From a virus, in the IMG/VR virus record IMGVR_UViG_3300027898_000007: DNA of 64,000 nt; one strand, given 5' to 3'. Below are positions 3,410-43,270 of the stretch, in pieces. The notes under the pieces were generated by a model. That model worked only from the letters and a program-made list of their open reading frames with translations, was not told the DNA's origin and made no database searches. Made by a program: the position numbers and the translations under genes. Every line of letters starts with the position of its first letter. The stretch's first letter is position 1.

Positions 3410-5001
3410 TAGTTTTCAACTGTTTTGGATTCTGGTTTTTCGTCTTGATAAATACTGCTTTCGATATTTCCTAACTTATTTTGTGAACCAAATGTAGCGG
3501 CTCTTTTAGCTTCTATATCTTTCTGTCTTAATTGATTTTGAATAATTCGATTCATATTTTGTTTTTCGAGTCCAGTAGCTTTATGATAACGATTAATAAA
3601 TTCATTGCTAAATTTAAAGTTTTTTAATGAATTTGTTAATTGCTCTTTACTTAAATGTTGAGATGGATCTTCCGGTACACTACTACTATAATCGGCTCCT
3701 AAGAATTTTTCAGATTGATCTCTACTTAAAGGTACGTATTCTGAACTACCATCGTGATTTCTATAAACAGTAACCGCTTGGGGTTGAATAATAAATTGAT
3801 CTTTTGTTCCCCAATTACCATACGTAATTCCCGTTACCGGATCTTTATGTATTTTCTCACTCATGGTATTACCTGTATGTCCGGTAACATCACCATCTTG
3901 ATCCAATGTAACTAATTGACCTATTAAATTACGAGGACCATCTTGAATGACTCCCATAACCGCATCATATAAATGTTTACCGCCTGTAATAATTGTTGGT
4001 TTTTCAGTTAAAGATAAATCAGCGTGACCATCTGGTCCTACATGCCAATGAGGACCTGAGATGGGTTGTAAATCTACATTTCTATTATAAGGTACGGTAG
4101 ATTTACCAAAAGTATAATGAGAAACTACACGATTTCCAGTAACGTGTTTGCCCAATAATCCCGCATTATTGAATTCGTTAGATTCATTAAATCCTGATTG
4201 ACTTTCATCTAATGTAGGAGCATGAAGGAAACCTACATCATTTTGAGCTATTGACGCTTTTACATTCGGGTCTGAATTAGGATCATATTCTTGATGAGCG
4301 TAATTTTTAAATCGATCCATGATGGCTTTAGTAGCCCAATCTCTTCTTTGAGATGGATCAATACCTAACGTAGATGCGTGTTGATACGCTTGTTTATAAA
4401 TATCGCTATTAGGATTGATGGCTCTAGCGATTTGATTATTGAGATTAGCGTGGTTTGATTTAACCCCATTTCCATAATCATCAAAACCCGCTTTTGATCC
4501 TAAATGATCTATTTGCTCAATATAATCTAATTTTTTGGCAAACTGATTAGGAATAACAATATTTCCACTTAGATCTACCGCTTTCCCATTAGCGAATGGA
4601 TCAGCGTAAGGAACTCCTTCGGAATTCAATTTTTGAACAATTTTTTGATTAGCTAAATAGGCTTGGTTATATTTATTGTTTTGTGAATATAAAGGATCAT
4701 TTACATAACGAGCGTATAATTCTTGTCGTTTTCGTTTACCTATGGGATCCGTCCAATCCGGATATTGATTGTATACTTCTTCGCTTTCTTTTTTAAATTG
4801 ATTGGCTTTATCCAATAATTTATTTTGAATATCCGGACTATAACTTGTCATGTTGGCTAAAGCCGAATTAGTAGCTGCATTTTGTTTTTCCTGGGTATCG
4901 TAATCTTGTTGATCGGCTTGTGCAACTCTCCCAATCGTATCTAATGGAATAGGTACGTATTGTTCAAGAGGTTGGTCTATAGGCGTTTGATATCTATTCA
5001 T
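3409..5001 (-). CDS. Putative virion cargo protein (530 aa)
   Basis: N-terminus MNRYQTPIDQPLEQYVPIPLD resembles crAss cargo proteins; lies between cargo protein 1 and the giant ORF. Confidence 0.6.
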   Translation of the reverse strand: MNRYQTPIDQPLEQYVPIPLDTIGRVAQADQQDYDTQEKQNAATNSALANMTSYSPDIQNKLLDKANQFKKESEEVYNQYPDWTDPIGKRKRQELYARYVNDPLYSQNNKYNQAYLANQKIVQKLNSEGVPYADPFANGKAVDLSGNIVIPNQFAKKLDYIEQIDHLGSKAGFDDYGNGVKSNHANLNNQIARAINPNSDIYKQAYQHASTLGIDPSQRRDWATKAIMDRFKNYAHQEYDPNSDPNVKASIAQNDVGFLHAPTLDESQSGFNESNEFNNAGLLGKHVTGNRVVSHYTFGKSTVPYNRNVDLQPISGPHWHVGPDGHADLSLTEKPTIITGGKHLYDAVMGVIQDGPRNLIGQLVTLDQDGDVTGHTGNTMSEKIHKDPVTGITYGNWGTKDQFIIQPQAVTVYRNHDGSSEYVPLSRDQSEKFLGADYSSSVPEDPSQHLSKEQLTNSLKNFKFSNEFINRYHKATGLEKQNMNRIIQNQLRQKDIEAKRAATFGSQNKLGNIESSIYQDEKPESKTVEN

Positions 5002-5010
5002 AGTCGAAGA

Positions 5011-8000
5011 TTATTGAGCGAGAAAAGGAGTAACATAATCGTTGGAATGAAGTCCATATACAGCTCCTAAATGATTGTATACGTGATTTAAAATAGCTTG
5101 ATCATATTGAGCTTTTAATGCGTTTTGTTTATCATTTAAATTACTAGCTATGATTTGACTTAATCCCGTTCCAATAGAATTTCTAGCGGCTCCTTGGTTA
5201 CGAGCATTATCATCATTAATTCGATAATTGTATTGATTAGCTATATTGTTAGCATTCACACGTTGGTTACCTAGTTGATTGTATAATCCGGCTCTTGTAC
5301 TTGCGTTTTGATTGTTGTATTGATTCGCCTGGAATTGAGCATTTCCTAACTGATTCAGAGTATTTGCATATACGTTATTTTTATTAGCTCTGCCTACTGA
5401 ACTGGAATTACTTCTTTGATCAATATCATTATATTGACCCTGGGCATTTAGTAAATACTGTTGTCTAATATTTTCAAAATTAACATTTTGAGGCATATTT
5501 CCAATCACTTGACCTTCGTATGGATTATATTCTGGAGCAATTTGTTTTTCTTTATCAGCATATAAACCTTGACCAATATTATATAAAGCGGGAGTTATTT
5601 TACTAATATGGTCTGCAATTTGACCGAATGATAAAGAATCACTTGGAGCGGATTTAAATTTTAATGGGGTATTATCTTGAGGAATGTTTCCATTCACCAC
5701 ATTAGGAATAGGTAAATTCGGTGAAGGATTATAAATTGAATTGACAGGAATAGATTTGGAATACGAATTTCTGTCGCTTTTTCCCCCGTTAACTGTTACG
5801 GTAGGTAATTCAGGATCTGAAGAATCTAAATAAGGTCCTCCATCCGCAAAATTTGTATTTTGATGTTGTTTAATCAATTGTTTCATAATTCCTGGATCAT
5901 ACCCTTGAACCGGATGTAATGGCGCATGAGCTGGTAAGTCACCAACCACAGGCTTAACTCTACTCATAACATCATGATTTACCCACCCTTGATACGTAAA
6001 AGGAGCGGGAACCGATGGGGAATTTAATAAAGGAGAATTTGTTAAAAAATCAAAAGGTACATCAGTATTTGCCGATGCGGGGTATCCGGTAGGGGAAGAA
6101 GTAGTATTTCCCCCCATATCATATTTAGGTACAATATAGGATCCTCGTTTGTAGTTGCCTTCTTCTTTTTTATTTTTATTCGCTATGATGTTTCGCATTA
6201 TACTTCCTTTTAAAATAGTATCGTTATTTTTATCCGCTAATTTGTATTTTTTAGCGTCTTTGCGAGTAATGATAAATTCACCGGGAGTTGCTTTTACAAA
6301 ATTACCAGCGGGTTCTATATCTATATTTTTAGCGTGTTTTTCGTATTTAGTTCCGCTTAAAGGATTTAATCCTGAATATTCTTGTAAAATTTTACCTGAT
6401 TTCGGATCAATTCGCAATTCTCCTTTTTCAATATCGATGTAATTTGCTCCTTCATTTTCTCCCTCACTTACTGCTTCATTTTCACCTCCCATATCAAATT
6501 TAAAAGGATTCGTAAATTGACCTCCCATACCAAAAGCATATGGACTATTGTCAATTACGTATTCTCCATTTGACCCCATTTTAGTGGGTGTATTTCTCCA
6601 ATTAGGATTGCTATTCATTCCCGGTTTAGAGGGAATAACTGCTGTGGGACCAGCCGAACGATAAAAGTTATTTTCTGTACCATTCATAGAATATTGAGGA
6701 GTAATCCGTAAATCATTTGGATGAAGCAATCCTTGACCTTTTAATTCCATGGTTTGTTTATCAAGTCCATCTAAATTTTTAGATGCTTGATTATACATAT
6801 TTGCTAACTCTTTTTTATTATTATAAAATGTGTTATTCTTTAAAGGTACTTGGATGGTTGAATTATTACTAGGTTTAGTTTTTGAGTTTTTTGTTCCTCC
6901 TGGTTGAGAATCTAATTCCCCACCCATGTTGTAAACAAAACTTCCCATTGCCATTTGTAGACCATATGGGTCATTATCAACAGAAGTGGCTCTTGTGTTG
7001 ATATTATTCGACATTTTCCTAGAATTCTTAACTCCGGCTTCCGTTAATGTTTTTTGTTCACGATTTGCTCCTATTAATCCAGTAACTCCTCCTAAAACGG
7101 CTCCTGCTGCTGCTCCGATGGGTCCAAATTCCGCACCAGCTGATGCTCCGGATAATGCTCCTGTTCCTATTTTAGAACCATAATTTACTTTACCCGTATT
7201 TGCTGAATCGTCTGGTGGAAGAAATCCCGCTAATAAACCTGCTCCAGCACCAATTCCTTTACTTAAAGGACTATCTCCATCTGTAATCCAAGAACCATCT
7301 GCGTATGGTTTATCTGAACGATTATTTTTTAATTGATAATATAAATTAGGTGGTAATAAAGTTTGTTGTTCTTCGCTTGTGGGAGTATGTGCTTGACCAT
7401 AAACAGTTGATCCCACTACATTACTCATTTGCTCCTTTTGATTGTTAGCGTCATTTTCATCATCCATCATATCCATATAATCCATGTCCGCATTTTTAGG
7501 TGGACGAACGGGAGGAATAACTGATGATTGAGATCTTTTTAAGTATTGAAGAGGACTTAAATTATTTTTAGAGGCTACGTTTAATTGACCGGATGCCAAT
7601 TTACGTTTTGCTCCAGCATACCCTTCCAAATGTATTATTTTAGCTAAATCAGAATCCGATAAATTATTACCAAGTCCTTCTTGTCTTAATATTTTTACAC
7701 GAGGTAATACTTGATTTACTAGGTAATGATCCATGAAATCTTCCTGAGCCTGGGGATTCGCTAAGAATTGTTGTTTAGATTTTACGCCTGTGAGTTGAGC
7801 AATTTGTTTTCCCCATTGACTCCAAATAAATTGATATTTACCTGCGGCTGTGGATTTTTTACTAGTGGCATTATAACGACCTCTCGATTCTACTTGAGCA
7901 ATATCCGCTTTTATCTTAGCTAGGTTAATTCCTCCTTTTTTAGGGGAAGGCGAAGGAGTATTTTCTTCTTCGTTTTTTTCATAATTATTTACAGATGGTT

Positions 8001-23638: not shown

Positions 23639-26600
23639 TTAGAAACTAGATAATATATACCATACTGTATTTGTTGGATCCCAAACAATACATAACCTGG
23701 ATCCTCCTGATGACAAAGTATTCAATACCGTAGTTGATCCGGATTGCCCGGTAAAATATTGTTCTATTGATCCAGATGCTGGAGTTAATGTGATCGTTCC
23801 TGTATTTGTCGTAGCCGTTCCTCTGTGAATGTATATTCGTTGAGGATAACTAGGAGTTGTTAAATTGATAGTGATAGCGGTTGACCCATTATTACAAATG
23901 ATCACTTCGTCTGACGTGGATGTGGTATAGTTAGACGTTCCTGTAAACGTCATGTTCATACCTTGACCTTTGGTGATAACTGATCCGTTAAACGTTCCTG
24001 TTTGATATACCATTTGACCAGTACCTAAAGTAGCGGCTGTGGTAGAACCTACTTTAGAAAGTACAATAGCATTAATAGGCATTGTAGCATTACCTAACGT
24101 ACTACCTCCATTAATCCAAATAATACCTGTTCCGTCTGGACTTATATTATTAAAATATAAAACCTGGGAAGTGTTGTTATAATACGTTACGTTTTGATCA
24201 TTATTTAATCCATTTACGGAAAAAGCAACTACTGTGTTTGTACCTTGTTTATATACAGAAGAACTAAATATTTCAAGATTGTATGTACCTGTGGTATCTA
24301 ATCCTGAAAATTGTAATAAAGCCCCTGTTTTAGTTTTAACATATGCCCCTGCGGCTACGTATGATTCAAAACCTGAATTCATAACCGTTGCGGGAATAAT
24401 AGAATTTCCCCAGGTAGTTGTGTTTAATGTGTTATAAGCTGATAATGAACCTGAAAAAGATGTCCAGTTTGCCGTAGCTACTGTACTTATTGTAACTCCG
24501 TTACTTAATGCTTTTGTTACAACTCCTGTACTCGGATTACCCGAAACATCTTGCCATCCAGCAATACTTTGAGCATTAGCGTTAAAATTTATATTCTGAG
24601 TCCAGGCTGTTTGATTACCTATGTTCTGTAATGGTTCTAAATAATATAGTGTGCCATCATAAGTAATTCTAAATAAATCAGTAGCGTTAGAACTAAGGGT
24701 GGGAGGTACAGAACCTACGAATGCATAATTAGCCCAAGTTATTACATAAGTTCCTAAATTTGTTAGTCGTAAATATCGAACTTGACCCGGTTCCATACCC
24801 ACCGGATATCCTATAGTTACGTTAGATGATACTTTGTATGTAAGTTGAGAAGTTGATGTAAAATTAGGATTGATGGTTGAACTAAACGGATATTCTGTAA
24901 GAACTGGTTTTAAATCATCTACTTTACTACTAGCGTTATTAAATAAATGATTTGATATGTATAAGTTACCTGTTAATATTCTCGAACCTGATGATTGAAA
25001 ACCAAATGTTTGAAAAGCCGTTATCATGGTTTGAGCCATCAAAATATGACCTTCTAAGCTAGGGTGAATATTATTACCATTAGACGAATATGCTACGTTA
25101 AATGTTCCTGTACCCGGCATAGCAAGTGGAGTCCATAAATCAATTACATACCCATCATTAGCATATGTATTAATTAATGTGTTATACGATATAATAACCG
25201 CGTTATATGTTAAATCGGGTATGATAGTAGTTAAAATTGGAATGATATTATTATTCAAACAATAACTAATAAATTGTTTTAAATAGTTGGTGAAGTTAGT
25301 TAATCCTTGAGCTGAGTCATTTTTACCCATACTCATAATAGCATAAGTGGGTTTTAAAACACCCATTTGAGTAGTATAATTTGTAATATCTGATATACTA
25401 CCACCAGATTGAGCTAATTGAACGTATCGTTTACCTAAGTTAAATGAGTTAGCCGCTATACGACCATACGCGTTATTAGGATCAGCTGCTGTAGGTACAT
25501 CTAATGTGGTATTAGCAATGGTACAATTATACCCCTGGGTTATACTGTCCCCAATATGAACAATATATGGGTTCAATTGAGTATTGACCATATAGACAAT
25601 ATTTTGATACAAATACGACCCCCCTACCGTACAAATACCTACCCATGTGGGATATGATCCTCCAAAAGAATAAGCCGTTGTAGATAATGCTTGGACGTAT
25701 TTAATGGATGCTGTTCCTGGAGTAGTTGTATTTGTTACAGTAAACGAATATGTAGCGTTATCTCGAACCACACTTAAATTTAAAACATCCCCCGCATTAA
25801 TTGTCAAGGCGTTCACAGAAGTAGCTACTACGTGAGCTGAAGCTACAATAGTCAAAATACCCGTAGAGGTATTAACAACGAATTCTCCGTAAGCCGTTGT
25901 ATTTCCGTAAAATATAGCGGCTCCGCTTCCAACAGTATTTACTTTAACCGTGGATGTTATTTGACATTCTGCGAAATATAAATTCTGAGCGTAATAATAC
26001 ACGTCCGTATATCCATTACTTGACCCGGTAGAAGAAATTCCAGAAGCCGCTGTGTAAGTATACGTTGTTCCACTTGGTGCGTATGTAGTGTAAGAAGTGT
26101 AAGATGTGGTTCCAGAATTCGTATTAAAGTATGAACTTTGATAAATACCAATAGCTCCCGTACCGTTAAAAGGAGTATATCCTAAAGCCGTAATAATATC
26201 CGAAGAACCTACACCAAAACTAGATACTACTCGTCCGTATCCATCAACTGCAAATTTAGAAAAACTAGTTCCGGTAGCGGCTTGAGTGATCGGTTTTAAA
26301 GTAGTTGTTATATTAGTAGTTCCCGAACCCGTTATATCTCCTGTAAGAGTAATGTTTTGATTTCCTGTTAAATATGTACCGTTTAACAATGGAGTTAAAT
26401 CTGAAGTAGTTACGGCTGTATTATTAATAACACGTCCTTTTGTATCTAAGCCAAGTTTAACAAAAGATGTTCCGGAAGATCCTTGGGTAATAGTCGCTAA
26501 TGTTAAAGTGGGAGTTAAAGAAGTAGTTCCTGATGATGATCCGGTAACATCTCCTGTACCTACTGGAGCAAAAGATATAGATTGATTAGCCGTTAAATAA

Positions 26601-28228
26601 GACACATTAGATCCTGCCGTCACCAATCCTTTAGCGTTAACCGTAACATTATTCCAAGTACCAACATTAGCATTTACCACAGGTAATGTTAATGCAATGC
26701 TCGTTGTTCCTGATCCGGAAATATCTCCACTAATGGTAATGCTTTGGTTAGCTGTTAAATAAGATGTATTAGATGCTGCTGTTACCAAGCCTTTAGCGTT
26801 TACGGTGACTGTATTAAAAGTACCTACGTTAGAATTGACAGTAGCTAGTGTTAAATTAGGACTCAATGTCGTAGTCCCACTAGCCGTTCCTGTTAAATCT
26901 CCACTTACTGTAAAAGTTATAGATTGATTACCAGTAAGATAAGAAACGTTAGAAGCTGATGTAACTAATCCTTTTGCATTTACGGTTACGTTGTTCCAAG
27001 TACCCACATTACTATTAACACTAGCTAATGTTAAAGATAACGTAGTAGTTCCTGATCCAGAAGCATCACCTGAAATAGTAATATTTTGATTACTTGTTAA
27101 ATAACTTCCTATTGGTTGGTAAGTAGTACTTGCGGTAGCTGTGGTTAAATACGGGCTTAAAGCACTAGAAGTAATATAATTATTAGGGTTAGTAGAGTTA
27201 TAAGGAACAAACCCTAAAGCACCTGTTACAGCTGTTGAAGTAACAGAAGTTAAATAGTTAGGTAATGTAACATTAACCCATTTAGTGCCGTTATATTGTA
27301 AATATTGAGAACTGGTTAATCCAGATAAACTAACATCGGTAAGAGCAGATAATGTAGTTGATCCTCCACCACCTCCTCCAGAAGCAGCCGCTACGTTGAC
27401 CCATTTGCTTCCATTATATTGCAAAATTTGACCACTTGATAATCCTGTTAATTGAACATCCGTGTGATTAGCAAAAGTGACTGATGTTAAATATGTATTG
27501 GTATTAAACGATCCGTCCTGCATTAAAAACGTGTTTGGACTTCCTCCAGGAACAATAAATTTAGGAGCGGTAATACCGTTTGTAAAAACTGGATTTCCTA
27601 AATAATCAATAGCTAAATAAGTAGTTCCTTTGATTCCTGAAAATCCTTTTGTTCCACCAATTCCTAAAATATATCGATTATTTGTATCTATTCCTTGAGT
27701 CCAAATAGATTGACCTACTCTAGTGAATGCTAAATAATTGTAATTATTGCCGTCTGTAGGATTGATTACGGATAATGTACCGTATGGATCATGAGCTGAT
27801 GAATTTCCCGCTATCGATAATCCTTGAAATAAATACTGAGACGTACCGTTAATAGGGCCACCCATGGTTAACGATCCTCCGATTACTCCGTTTCCGTCAA
27901 TATTAAAATTAGCTCCTGATTGAACTAAAGTACCGTTTAAAATAGCACTTCCTGAACTGATGGTTCCTGATGAAAAATTAATATGACTCAAAGGACTTCC
28001 CCATCCACCATTAATAAAATTATAAATGTTCCCCGTGGAATAATCTACATACCATTTATAAATATCCGTATCTAAAGCGGTTAATGTGGGATTAGCGGTA
28101 GGCACTCCCGTTCCCCAAAAAGTAGCATTTCCTAATACGGCAACTAAATTTTGCCATAAATTATATACGTCTACTTTTGAATAAACTGAATATTTAGGTA
28201 CACATGCTTGATAGGGATTTTGCGCCAT
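23639..28228 (-). CDS. Tail fibre/spike (1529 aa) with stalk repeats and an SGNH/GDSL esterase domain
   Basis: S/T/G-rich; SGNH blocks HIGDSITQG, QSGG, MGKND, NIHPS; LQYNGxKWVNV repeats. Confidence 0.8.
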   Translation of the reverse strand: MAQNPYQACVPKYSVYSKVDVYNLWQNLVAVLGNATFWGTGVPTANPTLTALDTDIYKWYVDYSTGNIYNFINGGWGSPLSHINFSSGTISSGSAILNGTLVQSGANFNIDGNGVIGGSLTMGGPINGTSQYLFQGLSIAGNSSAHDPYGTLSVINPTDGNNYNYLAFTRVGQSIWTQGIDTNNRYILGIGGTKGFSGIKGTTYLAIDYLGNPVFTNGITAPKFIVPGGSPNTFLMQDGSFNTNTYLTSVTFANHTDVQLTGLSSGQILQYNGSKWVNVAAASGGGGGGSTTLSALTDVSLSGLTSSQYLQYNGTKWVNVTLPNYLTSVTSTAVTGALGFVPYNSTNPNNYITSSALSPYLTTATASTTYQPIGSYLTSNQNITISGDASGSGTTTLSLTLASVNSNVGTWNNVTVNAKGLVTSASNVSYLTGNQSITFTVSGDLTGTASGTTTLSPNLTLATVNSNVGTFNTVTVNAKGLVTAASNTSYLTANQSITISGDISGSGTTSIALTLPVVNANVGTWNNVTVNAKGLVTAGSNVSYLTANQSISFAPVGTGDVTGSSSGTTSLTPTLTLATITQGSSGTSFVKLGLDTKGRVINNTAVTTSDLTPLLNGTYLTGNQNITLTGDITGSGTTNITTTLKPITQAATGTSFSKFAVDGYGRVVSSFGVGSSDIITALGYTPFNGTGAIGIYQSSYFNTNSGTTSYTSYTTYAPSGTTYTYTAASGISSTGSSNGYTDVYYYAQNLYFAECQITSTVKVNTVGSGAAIFYGNTTAYGEFVVNTSTGILTIVASAHVVATSVNALTINAGDVLNLSVVRDNATYSFTVTNTTTPGTASIKYVQALSTTAYSFGGSYPTWVGICTVGGSYLYQNIVYMVNTQLNPYIVHIGDSITQGYNCTIANTTLDVPTAADPNNAYGRIAANSFNLGKRYVQLAQSGGSISDITNYTTQMGVLKPTYAIMSMGKNDSAQGLTNFTNYLKQFISYCLNNNIIPILTTIIPDLTYNAVIISYNTLINTYANDGYVIDLWTPLAMPGTGTFNVAYSSNGNNIHPSLEGHILMAQTMITAFQTFGFQSSGSRILTGNLYISNHLFNNASSKVDDLKPVLTEYPFSSTINPNFTSTSQLTYKVSSNVTIGYPVGMEPGQVRYLRLTNLGTYVITWANYAFVGSVPPTLSSNATDLFRITYDGTLYYLEPLQNIGNQTAWTQNINFNANAQSIAGWQDVSGNPSTGVVTKALSNGVTISTVATANWTSFSGSLSAYNTLNTTTWGNSIIPATVMNSGFESYVAAGAYVKTKTGALLQFSGLDTTGTYNLEIFSSSVYKQGTNTVVAFSVNGLNNDQNVTYYNNTSQVLYFNNISPDGTGIIWINGGSTLGNATMPINAIVLSKVGSTTAATLGTGQMVYQTGTFNGSVITKGQGMNMTFTGTSNYTTSTSDEVIICNNGSTAITINLTTPSYPQRIYIHRGTATTNTGTITLTPASGSIEQYFTGQSGSTTVLNTLSSGGSRLCIVWDPTNTVWYILSSF
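26195..27103 (-). repeat. Five ~55-65 aa tail-fibre repeats
   Basis: YLTxNQxITxxGDxxGSGTT...LTL...VTVNAKGLVT, three close copies and two diverged copies. Confidence 0.8.
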
Positions 28229-30973: not shown

Positions 30974-32413
30974 TTAGGATGCGTTACAGATCAATTCTCC
31001 ACATGATAATGGATTTTGAATAGCAATTCCGGTTTCAGCTAAGAAGTGAACTGCATGTCCATCTAAGGTGTTAGAACGAATGTTTGAAACAGAATTCGAA
31101 TGACCCGCATCAGAACTTGCTCCAGCGGTTTGCCACATTACGCTTTCACGATCTCTCTTAGCATATTTCTGAATGTTAGATTTTCCATCATACATACCGT
31201 AATCGATAAAGGTAGCTCTGTACGATTCTAAAGGACGACCTGTGATTGGGTGAAGTTGACGGTTGTGAATTGGATCGTCATAAATTGGCATGTGCATTAA
31301 AGTAATCTCAGTACCATTCAATCCGTAGTAAGAAGTGAATTGACCTTTTAAAGTTAAATCTTGACCTTCTCCAGATACAAAATGAGTATCGATTAATTGG
31401 AAACGATTAGCCGATTGCTTCATAGCTCTGTCAAAAGCATCCATGAAATACTCACCACAAAGAGCCACGAATTTACGTTTACCTTTATCAATCACATTAT
31501 AAGAAAGATCCATCAGGAATTCACGAATAATGTTTTCAGTAAGAACAGTATAGGTTCTTTGGTTAGCAGGAGCAATTTGTTCACGTAAACCAGAACCAAT
31601 ATATACTGGGCGACCGTTTGATCCTTTCATATCCACAAATCCGGTCGGAGTTGCGTTGTAAGTAGAATAGATCATGGCTCTTTCTTGTTCACGATACCAT
31701 TGTTCATAAAAAGTCCATTTTTGAACATCTGTCCACATGGTAGAGGTTTTTCCGGTTTTAGGATCTTTCATCATTACCGCCATTACATCGGTAGAAGCTG
31801 ATCCTGAAATTTCATAGGTTTTACGTTGAGTAGTTAAGTGATTTCTTAACATGAACGGAGTAGCGTAAGTGGTTAATCCGGATTCAGAAGAAAGTTCTTC
31901 GTATGCTGAATAATCTTTGGAAAATTGCGCTCCATTAGCCAATAAGCTTAACGGCATATAAACCGATGGATCCAGAGTAGTTAATTTTAAAGTATAACAG
32001 AATCCGGCTCCTTCTTGATAAGGCTCTTCCATAACCCGTACAGGATAGGCTCTGTTGTCGGGTACTAAAATTTCTCCAACTCCGAAATGTTTTTTAGCCA
32101 ATTTAATACGAAAAGTCATACCATATTGTCCTGGAGTAGACCCTAAATCACCATAATTACCAATTACAGGAACAGGCTCTTCCAAATCCCCCATCAATCT
32201 CCATTGATATTGACGATTATCAATAAATTGAGTTTTTCCAATACCTCCGGTTAAAAGTTGTAAAGGGTTACCGTAATTTACTCCGAAAATAAACGATAAT
32301 ACGTTATTTACGGTTTCCGGTTCAGTTAAGTAAGCCGATGCCAAATTATTGGAATCGGTCATACCCGCTAATTTTTTACCTTGATAGAGTTGTAAATTGT
32401 TTACTGCTGCCAT
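30974..32413 (-). CDS. Major capsid protein (crAss type, HK97 fold)
   Basis: GMTDSNNLA, YQWRLMG, FSKDYSAYEELS, RNHLTTQRK, GSGLREQI; position after portal and scaffold. Confidence 0.9.
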   Translation of the reverse strand: MAAVNNLQLYQGKKLAGMTDSNNLASAYLTEPETVNNVLSFIFGVNYGNPLQLLTGGIGKTQFIDNRQYQWRLMGDLEEPVPVIGNYGDLGSTPGQYGMTFRIKLAKKHFGVGEILVPDNRAYPVRVMEEPYQEGAGFCYTLKLTTLDPSVYMPLSLLANGAQFSKDYSAYEELSSESGLTTYATPFMLRNHLTTQRKTYEISGSASTDVMAVMMKDPKTGKTSTMWTDVQKWTFYEQWYREQERAMIYSTYNATPTGFVDMKGSNGRPVYIGSGLREQIAPANQRTYTVLTENIIREFLMDLSYNVIDKGKRKFVALCGEYFMDAFDRAMKQSANRFQLIDTHFVSGEGQDLTLKGQFTSYYGLNGTEITLMHMPIYDDPIHNRQLHPITGRPLESYRATFIDYGMYDGKSNIQKYAKRDRESVMWQTAGASSDAGHSNSVSNIRSNTLDGHAVHFLAETGIAIQNPLSCGELICNAS

Positions 32414-33779: not shown

Positions 33780-36251
33780 TTATGATTGTCCAGGCTTACG
33801 ATTTTTGGTAGCCGACGCTATTTGCGCCCTAGCTACCTCAGCCGCTTTGTCGGCTTTATACTTTTCAGCTTCTATTTTTTTATCCGTTATTCGCTCCATC
33901 AATCGTCTTTCTTCTTCATCATCTTGTTTCTTTTGTTCAAACTTAGCTAACTCCAATTGATCCGGAATGCTATCTTGATTGACATCGTCGTTTTTAGCTC
34001 CTTTGAAACTATTGATTTGAGCGATTTCAATGAGAGCCGCGTTTTTATCTTGTTCTCTTTGATTTTTCTGAGATTCAGTAAATTGAATTTGAGCCAGAGC
34101 AGCTTGTTTATTAGCTTCGATTTGTTGTAATTGATATTGTTGTTGAGTAGCTTGTTCTTCTTGTTTAGCCGCTTCTGATTGCTCAATTGTATTTTTGATT
34201 TCAGCAATCGAATTAGATTGAAGAATAACCGTTGCTTCTTTTAAACTCATTGTACCGGATGCAATAGCTTGATTCGCTAAAGCACGTAAACCTTCTAATA
34301 CTTGGGTATCTCTAGCTTGATTGGATACAAATAATCCATAATCTGCATTAAGAAATTGATCTGAGATATTAATAATCATGCGACTCATATTATCCATAAT
34401 GTAATTAATTTTTTTACCTCCTTCTTTCCAACAATATTTAGCGGCTTCGATTAATCCGGATAATACATTTTTTTTAATTTCATTATGACGATAAAAAATA
34501 GGTTCGGTAACAAAACTAGATTGAACAATTGAACTATGAACGCCCCCTACTGTTTCAGAATTTGCCACACTACCTTGACGTTGATGAGACACTCCGGATA
34601 AATCTTCAATCATACGTTCAATTTTATCAAGTATTGTGATATATTGACCTACTGATTGAGATAAACTCATATCGACCGAAGTAAATTGATTAAAACTAGA
34701 CGTTCTACCTTGACCCATGGACCCAGTTCCTTCTTCAAAACTATTAATAAAAGCCAACCCTACTGAATCGAAATAATACATCCATTTTTCCAAATCCATA
34801 CCTTGAGATTTTGGAATTTGAGCTAAATCCACCACCATTTTCTTACCTTTAGCTTTAGCAATTTCAAGTTCTAATCGATACCAAATAATATCATATAAAT
34901 AAGAACCTGTTTTTAAATAATCAACAAATGATGTATTTCGAGAATTTAGATTATTATATAATCCTCCAAAAAATCCCAATTTACATTCCGATGGATTATC
35001 ATTGGTTCTAAATTGAAGTTCTTTAGGCTTCATATCAATATAAATACCATCTCCGATTTTAGTGCCTGTGTGAACTTCAGATATCCATTTCCATTCTACT
35101 ACTTCTCCAGATTTTGCATTTGGAACATATGTTTCATCCACCACCATTTCTTGTTCTTCAAGATTTTCGTCAAAATATTTTAAAAATCCTACTTTTCGTA
35201 ACGACACCCATTCTAAAATAGCTACTCTAATGTATCCCGTACCATTATGATCTCGAAATTGAGGACGACCATATGTAATTGGAATTCCTCGATCCGTTAT
35301 TCCTCCTTCTCCTAAATTAGAAGTAGACGCTGAAAAATATGTTCCCGTATCTAATATATTCAGTTGTTCTTCGGTTAATTGACTAAAATATTGATTAATA
35401 ATATCGTGAACTTTACAATATTTAATATAAACTCCGAACTGAGCTTTTTCTACTTCATCTGTATCTAATGAAGAATTATAAAAAAAATCAAGAGGGTTAA
35501 TACATTCAACAATTGGTTCTCCATTTTTTGTACCAATATAATAAAATTCACATCCTGAAATTAAACCGTGTTTAAATCCTTTATTAAAAAGAAAATCTAA
35601 ATTTAAATCTTTATGTAGATATTCTAATACTCGATTAGCCGTTACTTCCCTAAGATCATTAAAACTGTAATTTTGATATTTAGCAATTTCTTCCTGGGTA
35701 AAATTTTCAATGGGACTTGGTGGGGTTGGAGATTGGGTATTTGGAGATGATGGGTCTTGAGATGAATCTTGTTGGGGAGAGGGGGGAATTAATCCGGATT
35801 TTTTCATGGATTCAATTAATTCTTGTTCCATGGCTTGAAGTAACATTTCTTTTCGTTGTTCTTCAATTTCAGATACCGCTTCTTCATTTGTAACCACCAC
35901 TTTATATTCAAATGGTTTTTTTATTTCTTCTCCTAACAAAACTTTCATTTTTGGAGAAATAAGATCATGATGTCTTAATTTAGCTGGAAATTCTAAATTT
36001 TCACCATAAGGATGGGTAACGTAATTAAAATCGTTTTCGTTTACAATATTGTTTACTAAATCGTAATTAGCAGCCATATTAGCATAATCTGAAACTTCTC
36101 CAGCTGCATTTGTAGCATATCCTGTGCCTAACGATAAAGGTGTACTTAAATTTAAAAAATAATTAATATTTTGAATATACCATTTTTCATCTTTTTCTTT
36201 TCGAGAAAGTTTTTGAGGAGGATATATACTTGATTGCGATTCGAATCCCAT
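33780..36251 (-). CDS. Portal protein
   Basis: 823 aa; HDLISPKMKVLLGEE, DLAQIPKSQGM, FNQFTSVDMS, SGVSHQRQG. Confidence 0.9.
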   Translation of the reverse strand: MGFESQSSIYPPQKLSRKEKDEKWYIQNINYFLNLSTPLSLGTGYATNAAGEVSDYANMAANYDLVNNIVNENDFNYVTHPYGENLEFPAKLRHHDLISPKMKVLLGEEIKKPFEYKVVVTNEEAVSEIEEQRKEMLLQAMEQELIESMKKSGLIPPSPQQDSSQDPSSPNTQSPTPPSPIENFTQEEIAKYQNYSFNDLREVTANRVLEYLHKDLNLDFLFNKGFKHGLISGCEFYYIGTKNGEPIVECINPLDFFYNSSLDTDEVEKAQFGVYIKYCKVHDIINQYFSQLTEEQLNILDTGTYFSASTSNLGEGGITDRGIPITYGRPQFRDHNGTGYIRVAILEWVSLRKVGFLKYFDENLEEQEMVVDETYVPNAKSGEVVEWKWISEVHTGTKIGDGIYIDMKPKELQFRTNDNPSECKLGFFGGLYNNLNSRNTSFVDYLKTGSYLYDIIWYRLELEIAKAKGKKMVVDLAQIPKSQGMDLEKWMYYFDSVGLAFINSFEEGTGSMGQGRTSSFNQFTSVDMSLSQSVGQYITILDKIERMIEDLSGVSHQRQGSVANSETVGGVHSSIVQSSFVTEPIFYRHNEIKKNVLSGLIEAAKYCWKEGGKKINYIMDNMSRMIINISDQFLNADYGLFVSNQARDTQVLEGLRALANQAIASGTMSLKEATVILQSNSIAEIKNTIEQSEAAKQEEQATQQQYQLQQIEANKQAALAQIQFTESQKNQREQDKNAALIEIAQINSFKGAKNDDVNQDSIPDQLELAKFEQKKQDDEEERRLMERITDKKIEAEKYKADKAAEVARAQIASATKNRKPGQS

Positions 36252-36983: not shown

Positions 36984-39900
36984 TTAAATAAACAATTTTT
37001 TTTTAAAAAAGTTATCTACTAAAGCTTCTTTTTGTGCTTCGTGAACAACCACACGATGCATATCGGTAGCCATTAACAGAGCTAAGAAAAAAGCAATAAC
37101 CCGGTCAGTATTGACTTCTCCATCATACGCTATCAATTCTTCCACTAGCGGTATGGATGGAATATTAGTAAGCTGAAGAACGCCAGGGGATAATTCCGTT
37201 TTTAACCAATCGCGCGTCATGATTTCTAATTGCCCTTTAATTTGAGTACTCATATGAATACCATATTTACGATCTACTTTTGAATTAGGGCTGAGAGATT
37301 TGATAATCTGGGGTTGGGGATACAATAAATATAAAGAATTTTTATTTTCCAAATACATTTTTAATCCCGGTTTTTCATTTTCAAATAAAATACGACCGTT
37401 GTAAAATAAAGCCAATTTTCGAGCATTTTCTAAAAAATCTTTTTCTAATTCGGGTCTCCCGGTGTATTCCGCTACCACACAATTACTGGTTTTATCAGCT
37501 GAAATAAATCGTTTATACACAATCATAGACCCTACGGAATTAGATGTACTAGCCTGATCCATGGCATACGGGTCAAGTCCGATAGTATATAATCCAAATG
37601 GAGGATTGGGTATAGGTTGTTCCCATATAGTCACACATCCTTCTTTTTCGTCTTTTTCATAAATTGGAAATTTTAAAGCTCGATTAGACGGTAAAGGATA
37701 TGGTTCGAACTTAACTTCACCATTAGGTAATTGAATTAGTTTACCCTCGACTCCTAACAATTTATCGTCTCGTATGCTTTTTAAATTCGCCAGATGTTCT
37801 TTTAATTCCACTACTGGAAATACGTTTCCTGTGATGGTTAAGAAAGCTTCAGATGGTTTTAACGGTCGATTTTGTAATTCCGAATAAAGAGGTTCCCGGT
37901 TTTTACCTTCGGCTAATTTTTCTCTTTCTTTCATGAGATAATTTAAAGCCGCTACTTCATCGGTAATGCCTTCTTCATTTTTAAAGGCATTTAGTCCCAA
38001 GGTAGCTGGAATAAAATATCCTATTTTACCTCGATTTTCATATTTATCGTCAAAAGCAATACAGTTAAATGCTTCGGGAGAATAAAATATTTTTTGAGCA
38101 GCTTCCGTAGCCCCAGTAGCCATGGCTCCTCCGGTTCCAGTATAATGCAATGTTCCAAATTGTTCGGATCCATTGGCTACCGCTTCTCGCAATTGACCAT
38201 GGACTTCTAGTAAGTTATAACAAAAACCTACCTCATCGATGACGGCATACGAAGGACGAGATCCATTTGCCGCTAAAGGGTTAGCTTGAAAAGATCGATG
38301 GAGAATGGATGACCCCGATCCTTTTTTTACCCAGTTATTACCTTGTTTGTAATCATACAAAGCTTTGATGGCTTTTCCGGAATCCCAAGATCCAAAATAT
38401 AATTTTTTAAAAGGAGATGGGTATTCTCGACCATTGAAGGTAATTTCACCTTTTAAATTATCCAAGCCTAACTGCATTTTTTGCAATAAAGCACTAGAAT
38501 ATTTTGTATCGATGGCAGATATTAACGTTTCAGATTTAGTTCTTTGGTCTGGATCATATTCGGTTTGACCATCAAAAAGAAAATTATAATCTCCTCCTCC
38601 TGCGGCTCGGAAAGAATTATGAGTAACAATATAATCTCCAGCTACAAATAATTTATCTTCATTATCCACTTCAATACAAACTGACGGTTTTATACTAGTA
38701 GGTGTAATATTAGCAATACCTGTTTTACTAATTTTACACGTTTTATAAAAACATTCGTTTTTCCAATATCGTTGTTTTCTTTTTAATTTAAAAATTGGAA
38801 TTTTAGGTTTTAATCCAAATCTATAAACTAATTTATAACCTTTTACCTGTTTTGTGTATACTTTACATCCAATACCTAATGAGTTTACTAGATTATAAAA
38901 ATCTTTAGCTAATTGAGGAATAGTAGTTGTAAACTCAACTTGAGTTAAACCGGAATATCCGTCGGAATCCATCAAACCTTTTAACAATTCCATACGTTGC
39001 TCAATAGAACCGTATAAATAATCATATGGGATATGTTTGTTTTTTATTAAATTTAATTTTTTTAATTTGTTTTTTAAAACATTAAATTGACTATTTTTAG
39101 GAGCATTGATGTTGTAAGTTGGACAATTTTTTGACCCGTTTTGATTTAACGTAATATGTAAATTTTCTTTATCGGCAATTGTATAAACATATTCTATAAT
39201 TTCAGGATCCGTGGTTGTAATTCCTGTATTATGAGCATTGCCGTCACCCAACCACAATCCTAAGTAATAGGGTTCTAATTCTTGTTTTTTTTCCTCATAT
39301 TGAATTGGTTCACAATACTTAACGAAATATTTAGGATCACGTTTACCGTGGGGTCTTAAATACCCTAAATAATTATTTTTTATGTCGTCAATGGATCTAG
39401 TAACTGTTTTTTGACTAGTTGTTCTTAATGTCCATAAATGACCTCCTCCGCATTCTATTGATCTACCGTCTGAAAAAGATACTTGATATTGTAATTGATC
39501 CTTGTAATTAACTTTGTTCAATACTCGTGTGAGTTTACCATCAGCCCCGTAAATATAATCTCCCGGATTAATGTCTTTTATTTTAACAGGCCCTTCTTTT
39601 TTGTAAACTAACGTATTTTCTTCTAAATCTTTGCCATTTCCCCTCGAACCTATTTCTATCATATTCATAGCCCCATGATGGTATAAAGGACGACCTAATT
39701 GATGGGGAAAATTACTACCATTTTGCAAATAATCCATCAATTTATCTTGGGGAATTTCGGGTCCATTTTCAAAACCACTAAATCCTCTAGCTACTAAAAA
39801 CATATATCCCCAAATCCATTCGAGATCTCGGAGATGAGGGGATGCAATAATTTTTTGTTTGGAATTTTTACTTTTATTTAATTCGATTTGAAAATAATTG

Positions 39901-40058
39901 GTGTAAAAATATAATACACCGGGCATAAATTTATTTCCAACCCACATCCCCTCAATACATCGTCTTTTCTCCGTTCTCCAAAACTCAATATATTCCCTGG
40001 TGAGGGGATTAAGTGTTGGAATTTTGGTTAAAAAGGACTGGTTAGAAATAAATGTCAT
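36984..40058 (-). CDS. terL: Terminase large subunit containing an intein
   Basis: Walker A GSRGNGK|S split by intein; Walker B AVIDEVG; coupling motif GTGG; nuclease GLDPY and DRVIA. Confidence 0.92.
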   Translation of the reverse strand: MTFISNQSFLTKIPTLNPLTREYIEFWRTEKRRCIEGMWVGNKFMPGVLYFYTNYFQIELNKSKNSKQKIIASPHLRDLEWIWGYMFLVARGFSGFENGPEIPQDKLMDYLQNGSNFPHQLGRPLYHHGAMNMIEIGSRGNGKDLEENTLVYKKEGPVKIKDINPGDYIYGADGKLTRVLNKVNYKDQLQYQVSFSDGRSIECGGGHLWTLRTTSQKTVTRSIDDIKNNYLGYLRPHGKRDPKYFVKYCEPIQYEEKKQELEPYYLGLWLGDGNAHNTGITTTDPEIIEYVYTIADKENLHITLNQNGSKNCPTYNINAPKNSQFNVLKNKLKKLNLIKNKHIPYDYLYGSIEQRMELLKGLMDSDGYSGLTQVEFTTTIPQLAKDFYNLVNSLGIGCKVYTKQVKGYKLVYRFGLKPKIPIFKLKRKQRYWKNECFYKTCKISKTGIANITPTSIKPSVCIEVDNEDKLFVAGDYIVTHNSFRAAGGGDYNFLFDGQTEYDPDQRTKSETLISAIDTKYSSALLQKMQLGLDNLKGEITFNGREYPSPFKKLYFGSWDSGKAIKALYDYKQGNNWVKKGSGSSILHRSFQANPLAANGSRPSYAVIDEVGFCYNLLEVHGQLREAVANGSEQFGTLHYTGTGGAMATGATEAAQKIFYSPEAFNCIAFDDKYENRGKIGYFIPATLGLNAFKNEEGITDEVAALNYLMKEREKLAEGKNREPLYSELQNRPLKPSEAFLTITGNVFPVVELKEHLANLKSIRDDKLLGVEGKLIQLPNGEVKFEPYPLPSNRALKFPIYEKDEKEGCVTIWEQPIPNPPFGLYTIGLDPYAMDQASTSNSVGSMIVYKRFISADKTSNCVVAEYTGRPELEKDFLENARKLALFYNGRILFENEKPGLKMYLENKNSLYLLYPQPQIIKSLSPNSKVDRKYGIHMSTQIKGQLEIMTRDWLKTELSPGVLQLTNIPSIPLVEELIAYDGEVNTDRVIAFFLALLMATDMHRVVVHEAQKEALVDNFFKKKLFI
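38616..39629 (-). mobile_element. Class 3 intein (338 aa) with LAGLIDADG homing endonuclease
   Basis: Starts DLEENTLV after GK, ends VTHN before Ser; CGGGHLW (block B), LGLWLGDG and LKGLMDSDG (LAGLIDADG), VCIEV (block F). Confidence 0.9.
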
Positions 40059-42464: not shown

Positions 42465-43172
42465 TTAAAGTTTAGTTGCGGTTAATTTTTGTTGTTTTTT
42501 CTTTAACCTGTATTGTTTTCCTTTTTCTCGTTTAAGAGTTTTACATTCATCACATCTGCATCCGTAGGTATCGTAAGCAGATATTGACGGATGTGTTCTA
42601 GGTTTAATTGGTTGTATTCTTTTTGACCTACGATATTTTTCTTTTTTAGTTCTCATAAATTCTCGACATTTTTCACATCGACAACCAAGATCGTATGTCC
42701 TATAACTAGGATGAATTTCAACATTTGATAATATTTCTTTTTTTCGTTCTGTTGTTAAATTTTGTTGTTTTTTCTTTTTATATTTTTTAGAATATTTTTT
42801 TTCCGATTCTTTTCTTTTTAAATATAAATTAGTACATTCTTCACAACGACATCCGCGTTTAACATAAGCATTAACCGATGGATGAATTAATCGATTTTTA
42901 TTTTTAATACCAATAGAGTTACACCGTAAATGAGAAAATGCTAAATTATTTACATCCCAAAACATTTCTTTAGGATTTTCAGACCCCATCCAAGCAATTT
43001 TATGCTCGATAGATAATGTGTTAATATCTGTTATTTTTTCCCCACATTGAAAACAAGTATCCATTCCGCATTTTTGCATACAATGGAATAACATCAATTT
43101 CCTAATTTGAATGTGAGATTTTTGTAATGATTGTCCTAAAATTTCATATCCTTTTTTTTGAGAAGGAGTCAT
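42465..43172 (-). CDS. HNH endonuclease with three C-terminal zinc-finger-like repeats
   Basis: CFQC...SIEHK...NLAFSHLRCN, then three HPSxxxY(x)xxGCRCxxC repeats. Confidence 0.7.
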   Translation of the reverse strand: MTPSQKKGYEILGQSLQKSHIQIRKLMLFHCMQKCGMDTCFQCGEKITDINTLSIEHKIAWMGSENPKEMFWDVNNLAFSHLRCNSIGIKNKNRLIHPSVNAYVKRGCRCEECTNLYLKRKESEKKYSKKYKKKKQQNLTTERKKEILSNVEIHPSYRTYDLGCRCEKCREFMRTKKEKYRRSKRIQPIKPRTHPSISAYDTYGCRCDECKTLKREKGKQYRLKKKQQKLTATKL

Positions 43173-43198: not shown

Positions 43199-43270
43199 TA
43201 GCCCTGGGAGGAATCGAACCCCCAACTACGGAAAATGAGCCCGTTCAGATACCATTTCTAACACAGGGCA
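43199..43270 (-). tRNA. Atypical initiator-like tRNA-Met(CAT); CCA not encoded
   Basis: GCCCTG/CAGGGC acceptor stem with U1:U72, TAGA/TCTG D stem, ACGGG-CTCATTT-TCCGT anticodon arm, GGGGG-TTCGATT-CCTCC T arm. Confidence 0.75.

Follow-up and report, generated by a model that had tools for sequence, protein, structure and literature searches.

Why would a phage carry an initiator-type tRNA whose anticodon loop departs from the bacterial form immediately 3' of the anticodon? The question is raised by the only tRNA gene in the 64 kb stretch of viral DNA analysed here (IMG/VR record IMGVR_UViG_3300027898_000007; in the following, the window). To our knowledge, almost all tRNAs carry a purine at position 37, and bacterial initiators hardly vary in their CAUAA loop. 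A first-pass annotation had described the gene as initiator-like, had treated it as a one-off and had suggested a nuclease-resistant initiator, a decoy for anticodon nucleases or a decaying pseudo-tRNA. Our analysis places it instead in a recurrent class of phage tRNAs.

ARAGORN calls the gene as tRNA-Met(CAT), and in a search of the whole window the Rfam model RF00005 recovers it with 36.5 bits (gathering score 29, E=5e-4). The minimum-free-energy structure computed with RNAfold is a cloverleaf. The acceptor stem GCCCUG/CAGGGC lies beneath a U1·U72 mismatch and carries G2:C71 and C3:G70, which together with the discriminator A73 are determinants for the formylase and MetRS in E. coli. In the Rfam alignment the D stem UAGA/UCUG provides A11:U24 and U10·G25. 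The anticodon stem ACGGG/UCCGU forms G29:C41, G30:C40 and the wobble pair G31·U39, and it closes the loop CUCAUUU (C32 U33 C34 A35 U36 U37 U38). The variable loop has four bases, the T stem contains a G51·U63 wobble, and the 3' flank reads UCU, so that CCA is not encoded. All 20 stem pairs are intact, and the T loop, the GG of the D loop, U33 and the anticodon are kept.

The initiator hallmarks listed in the first-pass annotation, i.e. the 1:72 mismatch, A11:U24, G29-G30-G31 and CUCAU, are thus all present in the sequence and the Rfam alignment, as are its U37, U38 and G31:U39 wobble and the missing CCA. It had also reported one extra base before the D stem. Both the Rfam alignment and homology (UGU at the acceptor/D junction compared to UA or UG in relatives) confirm this base, while ARAGORN and RNAfold absorb it in a shifted D stem of 4 bp and 5 bp, respectively, without base 26; the D stem of ARAGORN would give U11·G24 instead of A11:U24. 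Compared with a bacterial initiator, the gene shows the CAU anticodon after U33 (ARAGORN and Rfam alignment), the absence of a Watson-Crick pair at 1:72, and the G2:C71, C3:G70, A73 and A11:U24 elements. It departs at two points: three consecutive G:C pairs at 29-31/39-41 are not formed, since 31:39 is G·U, and A37 and A38 of the CUCAUAA loop are replaced by U37 and U38. A tRNA-Ile2, whose gene also has a CAU anticodon that receives lysidine, was considered and ruled out by U1·U72, A11:U24 and U37. That tRNA has an elongator body with a paired 1:72, pyrimidine 11 opposite purine 24, and A37 for t6A.

Table 1. Positions of the tRNA gene, its anticodon loop and other genes of the phage (window numbering).
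Feature	Position	Strand	Evidence or remark
Initiator-like tRNA(CAU) gene, 72 nt, without encoded CCA	43199..43270	minus	ARAGORN, Rfam RF00005, cloverleaf MFE fold, syntenic covarying homologues
Anticodon loop C32-U38 plus U39, CUCAU-U37-U38-U39	43232..43239	minus	sequence
Anticodon CAU	43237-43235	minus	
U37	43234	minus	
U38	43233	minus	
U39	43232	minus	
HNH endonuclease gene, C-terminal HTH	42465..43172	minus	phrog_23251, 5e-30; phrog_14857
Large terminase (TerL) gene with probable LAGLIDADG intein	36984..40058	minus	PHROG terminase families; Pfam LAGLIDADG_3, Hom_end
Portal gene	33780..36251	minus	phrog_6547, 3e-125; served as probe for relatives
crAss-type major capsid protein gene	30974..32413	minus	Pfam Crass_capsid, 5e-147; identifies phage order

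Judged from its predicted proteins, the window is a divergent crAss-like phage. The best portal match among GenBank phages is 35% identical, and no GenBank phage with DNA similarity to the tRNA locus was found. The tRNA belongs to a run of small co-directional genes with which the packaging and structural block opens, and TerL starts about 3.1 kb downstream on the same strand. Ten small neighbouring ORFs gave no informative match to PHROG. Scans around the tRNA revealed no terminator and no sigma-70 promoter sites above those in shuffled sequences, the model being that of sigma-70 and not of Bacteroidota or crAss promoters. Across all predicted starts the window lacks a Shine-Dalgarno signal: at positions -20 to -1, G accounts for 1-14% and A for about 50%. 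Leaders that are A-rich and G-poor, as in Bacteroidota, support a Bacteroidota host. Taken together with the features of the cloverleaf, the gene is, as far as its sequence can tell, a phage-encoded initiator-type tRNA (tRNA-fMet class) of a phage with a Bacteroidota-type host.

Several other genes of the window deserve mention in their own right. The HNH gene begins 27 nt past the tRNA and probably encodes a homing endonuclease; its location recalls the homing endonucleases in tRNA regions of T4-like phages, and locus L064 has an HNH_2 gene in the equivalent block without a tRNA. The TerL protein comprises 1024 amino acids compared to about 680-734 in relatives and harbours a LAGLIDADG homing-endonuclease domain at residues ~343-412, so that an intein is most likely present. 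Downstream of the capsid block, a 1529-residue protein (23639-28228, minus strand) with Pfam hits to GDSL lipases/esterases, as annotated in L061, may be a tail-associated depolymerase or esterase.

Relatives of the window were collected by portal and terminase searches and form a clade of environmental crAss-like contigs; a search with a 183-residue neighbouring protein returned none. We then surveyed 44 distinct loci in which 4 kb or more of sequence precede TerL. An initiator-like tRNA(CAU) occupies the equivalent site in five of them, namely the window, L062 (portal 59% identical to that of the window) and L051, L056 and L191 (about 47%). One further locus, L063, carries a five-tRNA array (Gly, Phe, Thr, Gly, Met; 4923-5351) in place of the single tRNA, and its Met tRNA is of the elongator type (U1:A72, U11:A24, G37). 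No tRNA lies upstream of TerL in the remaining 38 crAss-like loci, which indicates that the gene is dispensable. Two other observations were made among these contigs. A tRNA with the anticodon UCA, called as tRNA-SeC by ARAGORN, is present in the crAss-like relative L259 (2867-2962, minus strand) and may serve as a suppressor of TGA, a type of tRNA that has been linked to the recoding of stop codons in crAss-like phages. The 244-kb contig JGI24890J29729_1000009 contains the terminase locus three times (L185, L186, L187) at a spacing of 92.9 kb and probably represents a crAss-like genome of ~93 kb assembled as a concatemer.

The five independent syntenic copies provide evidence for selection on the molecule. 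In their alignment 99% of the stem cells pair, and compensatory double changes have occurred in 13 of the 20 pairs. The window copy differs from its relatives by four double changes in the acceptor stem alone. None of 500 shuffles matched these pairing and covariation values, and shifted registers paired to at most 54%. Invariant across all five are G2:C71, C3:G70, A11:U24, G12:C23, G30:C40, the anticodon and U37, i.e. U37 was retained while most of the molecule turned over. The loops read CUCAUUU in the window, UUCAUUA in L062 and L191, and CUCAUUA in L051 and L056. The UUU whose conservation the first-pass annotation had proposed to check is kept only in part: U37 is found in 5/5 copies and U39 in some (the window, L062 and L056, and also L654 and L655), but U38 has no counterpart in the close relatives and is matched only by L502, a more distant crAss-like lineage. 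The four closest relatives have A38, followed in two of them by C39, and the region around 31:39 ranges from three G:C pairs (L051, L191) down to G30:C40 only (L056). With its 36.5 bits, compared to 53-61 bits for three of the relatives, the window copy is the least canonical of the group.

These data also bear on whether the gene is decaying, or survives only as a target site, for example one recognised by the neighbouring HNH homing endonuclease. The low score, the inserted base, the three G·U pairs, the four-base variable loop and the abutting HNH gene are what such a remnant might look like. However, every stem pair of the window copy is intact, its differences from the relatives are compensatory, and it retains the T loop, the D-loop GG, U33 and the anticodon. 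Since the four other syntenic copies keep their stems by compensatory changes and keep U37 as well, we reject the pseudogene interpretation as highly improbable. In this light we take the window tRNA for a working variant under selection, as opposed to a gene in decay.

To place the loop among cellular initiators, we scanned one genome for each of 185,579 species with the U37 pattern, which matched in at least 120 places. Among the 120 listed, only 15-17 are tRNAs, and five of ten cellular U37 copies examined adjoin terminase, head-morphogenesis or capsid genes. By this measure U37 is a phage trait that is near absent from cells. One archaeal-type case (L353, 3579-3654) was seen on a Nitrosopumilus MAG chromosome, an initiator-like tRNA with A1:U72 and U37-G38; the large ORF next to it matched no phage family. 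GGGCUCAUAACCC sites were present in 5/5 Bacteroidota genomes checked. Three of them were inspected with ARAGORN and proved to be tRNA-Met genes with the loop CAUAAC, U1·U72 or C1·U72 and no encoded CCA. The 1:72 mismatch and the missing CCA of the window tRNA are thus ordinary for the likely host phylum, and it is the loop that sets an otherwise host-like acceptor end apart.

Among viruses, two initial pattern samples of tRNA(CAU) genes (~90 genes, selecting other subfamilies) yielded no U37 outside the crAss-like relatives. A search pattern with U37 fixed between GGG and CCC matched IMG/VR in at least 118 places, of which at least 107 were confirmed by ARAGORN as tRNA(CAU) genes. These 107 listed genes comprise 72 distinct sequences and 45 clusters at 85% identity; 93 have the 1:72 mismatch, 89 A11:U24 and 98 A73, and 95 are the only tRNA in the fetched locus. 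At position 38, 71 genes have C, 28 have A, and G and U occur in four each. According to a complete scan with a narrower pattern, the broader scan covered ~70% of IMG/VR, from which we extrapolate to ~150 U37 initiator-like genes. They include four further crAss-like lineages with a U37 tRNA upstream of TerL (L655, L441, L502 and L517; portals 30-40% identical), and the L502 loop shares U37-U38 with the window. In an unbiased scan that allowed any base at 37 and 38 (n=106), 97 genes have A37, six G37, three U37 and none C37, and about one third differ from AA at 37-38. The U37 share of phage initiator-like tRNAs is thus roughly 2-3%.

In other phage tRNA species, U37 was found in 9/689 and C37 in 6/689 genes, for example in tRNA-Asp(GUC) with the loop CUGUCUA and tRNA-Glu(UUC) with the loop CUUUCUA (L045, L091, L537, L562, L577, L594 and others). 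Pyrimidine 37 may thus be a broader phenomenon of phage tRNAs, and since it amounts to ~1-2% there, the ~3% in initiators may reflect a generally looser constraint in phages. On a tree built with the loop masked, U37 and purine 37 interchange 44 times compared to about 70-80 times with shuffled labels, and when the loop is disregarded, some U37 genes share 90-94% identity with A37 genes (94% for L478 and L549). This suggests that U37 likely arose several times, in a number that 70-nt sequences resolve too poorly to count.

The best explanation of the gene, to which we assign a probability of roughly 45%, is that it encodes a functional phage initiator tRNA that evades a nuclease. The tRNA would probably be excised from the co-directional transcript, receive its CCA end from the host, be charged by the host MetRS and formylated by the host formylase, and supply initiator during late gene expression. 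In the tRNA-fMet of E. coli, A37 joins the G29-C41 pair in a triple and A38 is paired to Cm32, which gives the loop its initiator-unique shape (PMC2528185). With U37 fixed in the lineage and U38 and U39 added in the window, neither the A37·(G29-C41) triple nor the C32·A38 pair could form. The phage copy could then be a poor substrate for a putative factor, of the host or of a rival element, that targets the canonical initiator loop for cleavage, and initiation would continue while the initiator of the host is destroyed. We know of no initiator-targeting nuclease in Bacteroidota. The first-pass annotation had built its argument on VapC, and enteric and leptospiral VapC toxins do cut tRNA-fMet between A38 and C39 (PMC4105405). 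For the window this argument is weak, because the shared, conserved derived change is U37 whereas the relatives keep A38, two of them with C39, and because the host is of the Bacteroidota type and not enteric. The loop difference itself is present: the phage gene encodes UUU where the Bacteroidota initiators, standing in for the host copy, have AAC. More tentatively, U37 initiators as a class might be a widespread and repeatedly arisen counter-defence, each a private initiator that, with A37 and often also 38 and 39 replaced, escapes host or rival-element factors reading the A37/A38-dependent loop of cellular tRNA-fMet.

A quite different account needs no nuclease. Here the gene would be a working initiator that boosts the supply for late genes, and U37 a frozen accident that is bearable in initiators because bacterial A37 is unmodified and the initiator binds the P site directly. 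The pyrimidines at ~2% in other phage tRNA species, the relaxed loops suggested by the third of initiator-like tRNAs without AA at 37-38 and the patchy presence of the gene among relatives are consistent with this account. Evidence against it is a U37 that is invariant in five lineages while 13/20 stem pairs turned over, that recurs in 45 listed clusters among A37 relatives with the many changes on the tree, and that has no C37 counterpart in the 106 unbiased genes. We regard a tolerated U37 as possible but doubtful. Yet another role for U37, together with U38, could lie in initiation itself, by altering the seating on the 30S subunit, either through the lost A37 triple or through pairing with an A 5' of AUG, in favour of phage mRNAs in Bacteroidota, where translation does without Shine-Dalgarno sequences. 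The A-rich, G-poor leaders of the window would fit, as would the contribution of A37 and A38 to the initiator-specific loop of E. coli (PMC2528185). U37 tRNAs also occur, however, in phages of Proteobacteria that use Shine-Dalgarno sequences. Moreover, A at -1 is not enriched in the window (0.57 compared to 0.45-0.59 at neighbouring positions), and its pooled frequency is 0.43 in five phages with a U37 tRNA and 0.38 in eight relatives without the tRNA. The extended anticodon, in which U37 pairs with A at -1, was set aside since the start contexts show no enrichment, and tuning of initiation in general appears unlikely.

The gene had also been proposed to act as a decoy, i.e. a tRNA-like RNA that titrates a host tRNA-targeting enzyme without serving in translation. 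Viral tRNAs can neutralise defence nucleases (PMC11464382), which gives this proposal a precedent. The loop, the likely recognition element, is however the part that diverges from the host form, whereas the charging and formylation determinants at the acceptor end, which a decoy does not need, are invariant. We therefore consider a decoy very improbable, and a nuclease-resistant initiator is in our view the likeliest reading.

If U37 initiators do serve as a counter-defence, the targeting of initiator tRNA would be a common form of antiphage immunity, most of it still to be discovered, Bacteroidota included. More generally, a U37 that is conserved in a lineage, recurrent and near absent in cells marks the initiator anticodon loop as a place where phage and host are in conflict or where viruses tune initiation in their own way. 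Such genes are labelled plain 'tRNA-Met' in annotation or missed altogether. Cultured phages of Erwinia, Salmonella, Hafnia and Aeromonas have the same loop and make the question approachable at the bench. In the literature we found no description of U37 phage initiators, of a crAss tRNA-Met or of phage tRNAfMet directed against defence systems. Phage tRNAs with altered anticodon loops are known; what is added here is U37 in initiators, conserved in a lineage and recurrent across phages.

It is instructive to compare the window tRNA with these known systems. With bacterial tRNA-fMet, in particular the Bacteroidota form, it has in common CAU, the 1:72 mismatch, G2:C71, C3:G70, A73, A11:U24, G29:C41, G30:C40 and the lack of an encoded CCA, and its U1·U72 is that of the Chitinophaga and Lentimicrobiaceae copies. 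It differs from the Bacteroidota form by U37, U38 and U39 in place of A37, A38 and C39, which results in G31·U39, by compensatory substitutions in acceptor pairs 4-7, by the extra base at the acceptor/D junction and by the four-base variable loop. Differences between phage and host tRNAs are frequent near nuclease cut sites, and mutations in the anticodon loop have been proposed as evasion (van den Berg et al. 2023, PMC10264068); that study also states that tRNA-fMet is generally left out by phages facing VapC. The effectors of PARIS and retrons are neutralised by viral tRNAs (PMC11464382, PMC11555353). Like the window tRNA, the tRNAs in these three studies are copies of a host species that differ inside the anticodon loop, there next to a known nuclease cut site. 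In contrast, they are elongators (Lys, Tyr and others), usually with a purine at 37, while the window tRNA is of the initiator type with U37.

Lone or array-borne initiator-like tRNAs, often near the terminase as in the window, are carried by Stenotrophomonas phage QDWS359 (annotated 'tRNA-fMet'), Pseudomonas phage D3 and Bacteroides LoVEphage. Phage initiator-type tRNA-Met genes mostly have A37 (97/106 in the unbiased sample), and the window belongs to the U37 minority of ~3%. The closest cultured counterparts, which include Ounavirinae and T4-like Aeromonas phages and whose genes are annotated merely as tRNA-Met, have the anticodon arms CCAGU-UUCAUUA-UCUGG (Erwinia phage phiEa21-4 and Salmonella phage SB18), CAAGA-CUCAUUA-UCUUG (Hafnia phage Zyzzx) and CCAGA-CUCAUUA-UCUGG (Aeromonas phage AS-zj), the latter being identical to the arm of the crAss-like L056. 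Their initiator status is less clear because several have A1:U72 or no GGG run, and unlike the window tRNA they encode CCA and belong to phages of Proteobacteria. They share with it U37, in a loop of the form YUCAUUA, and as in L062 and L056 their 31:39 position is weak (U·U) or A31:U39.
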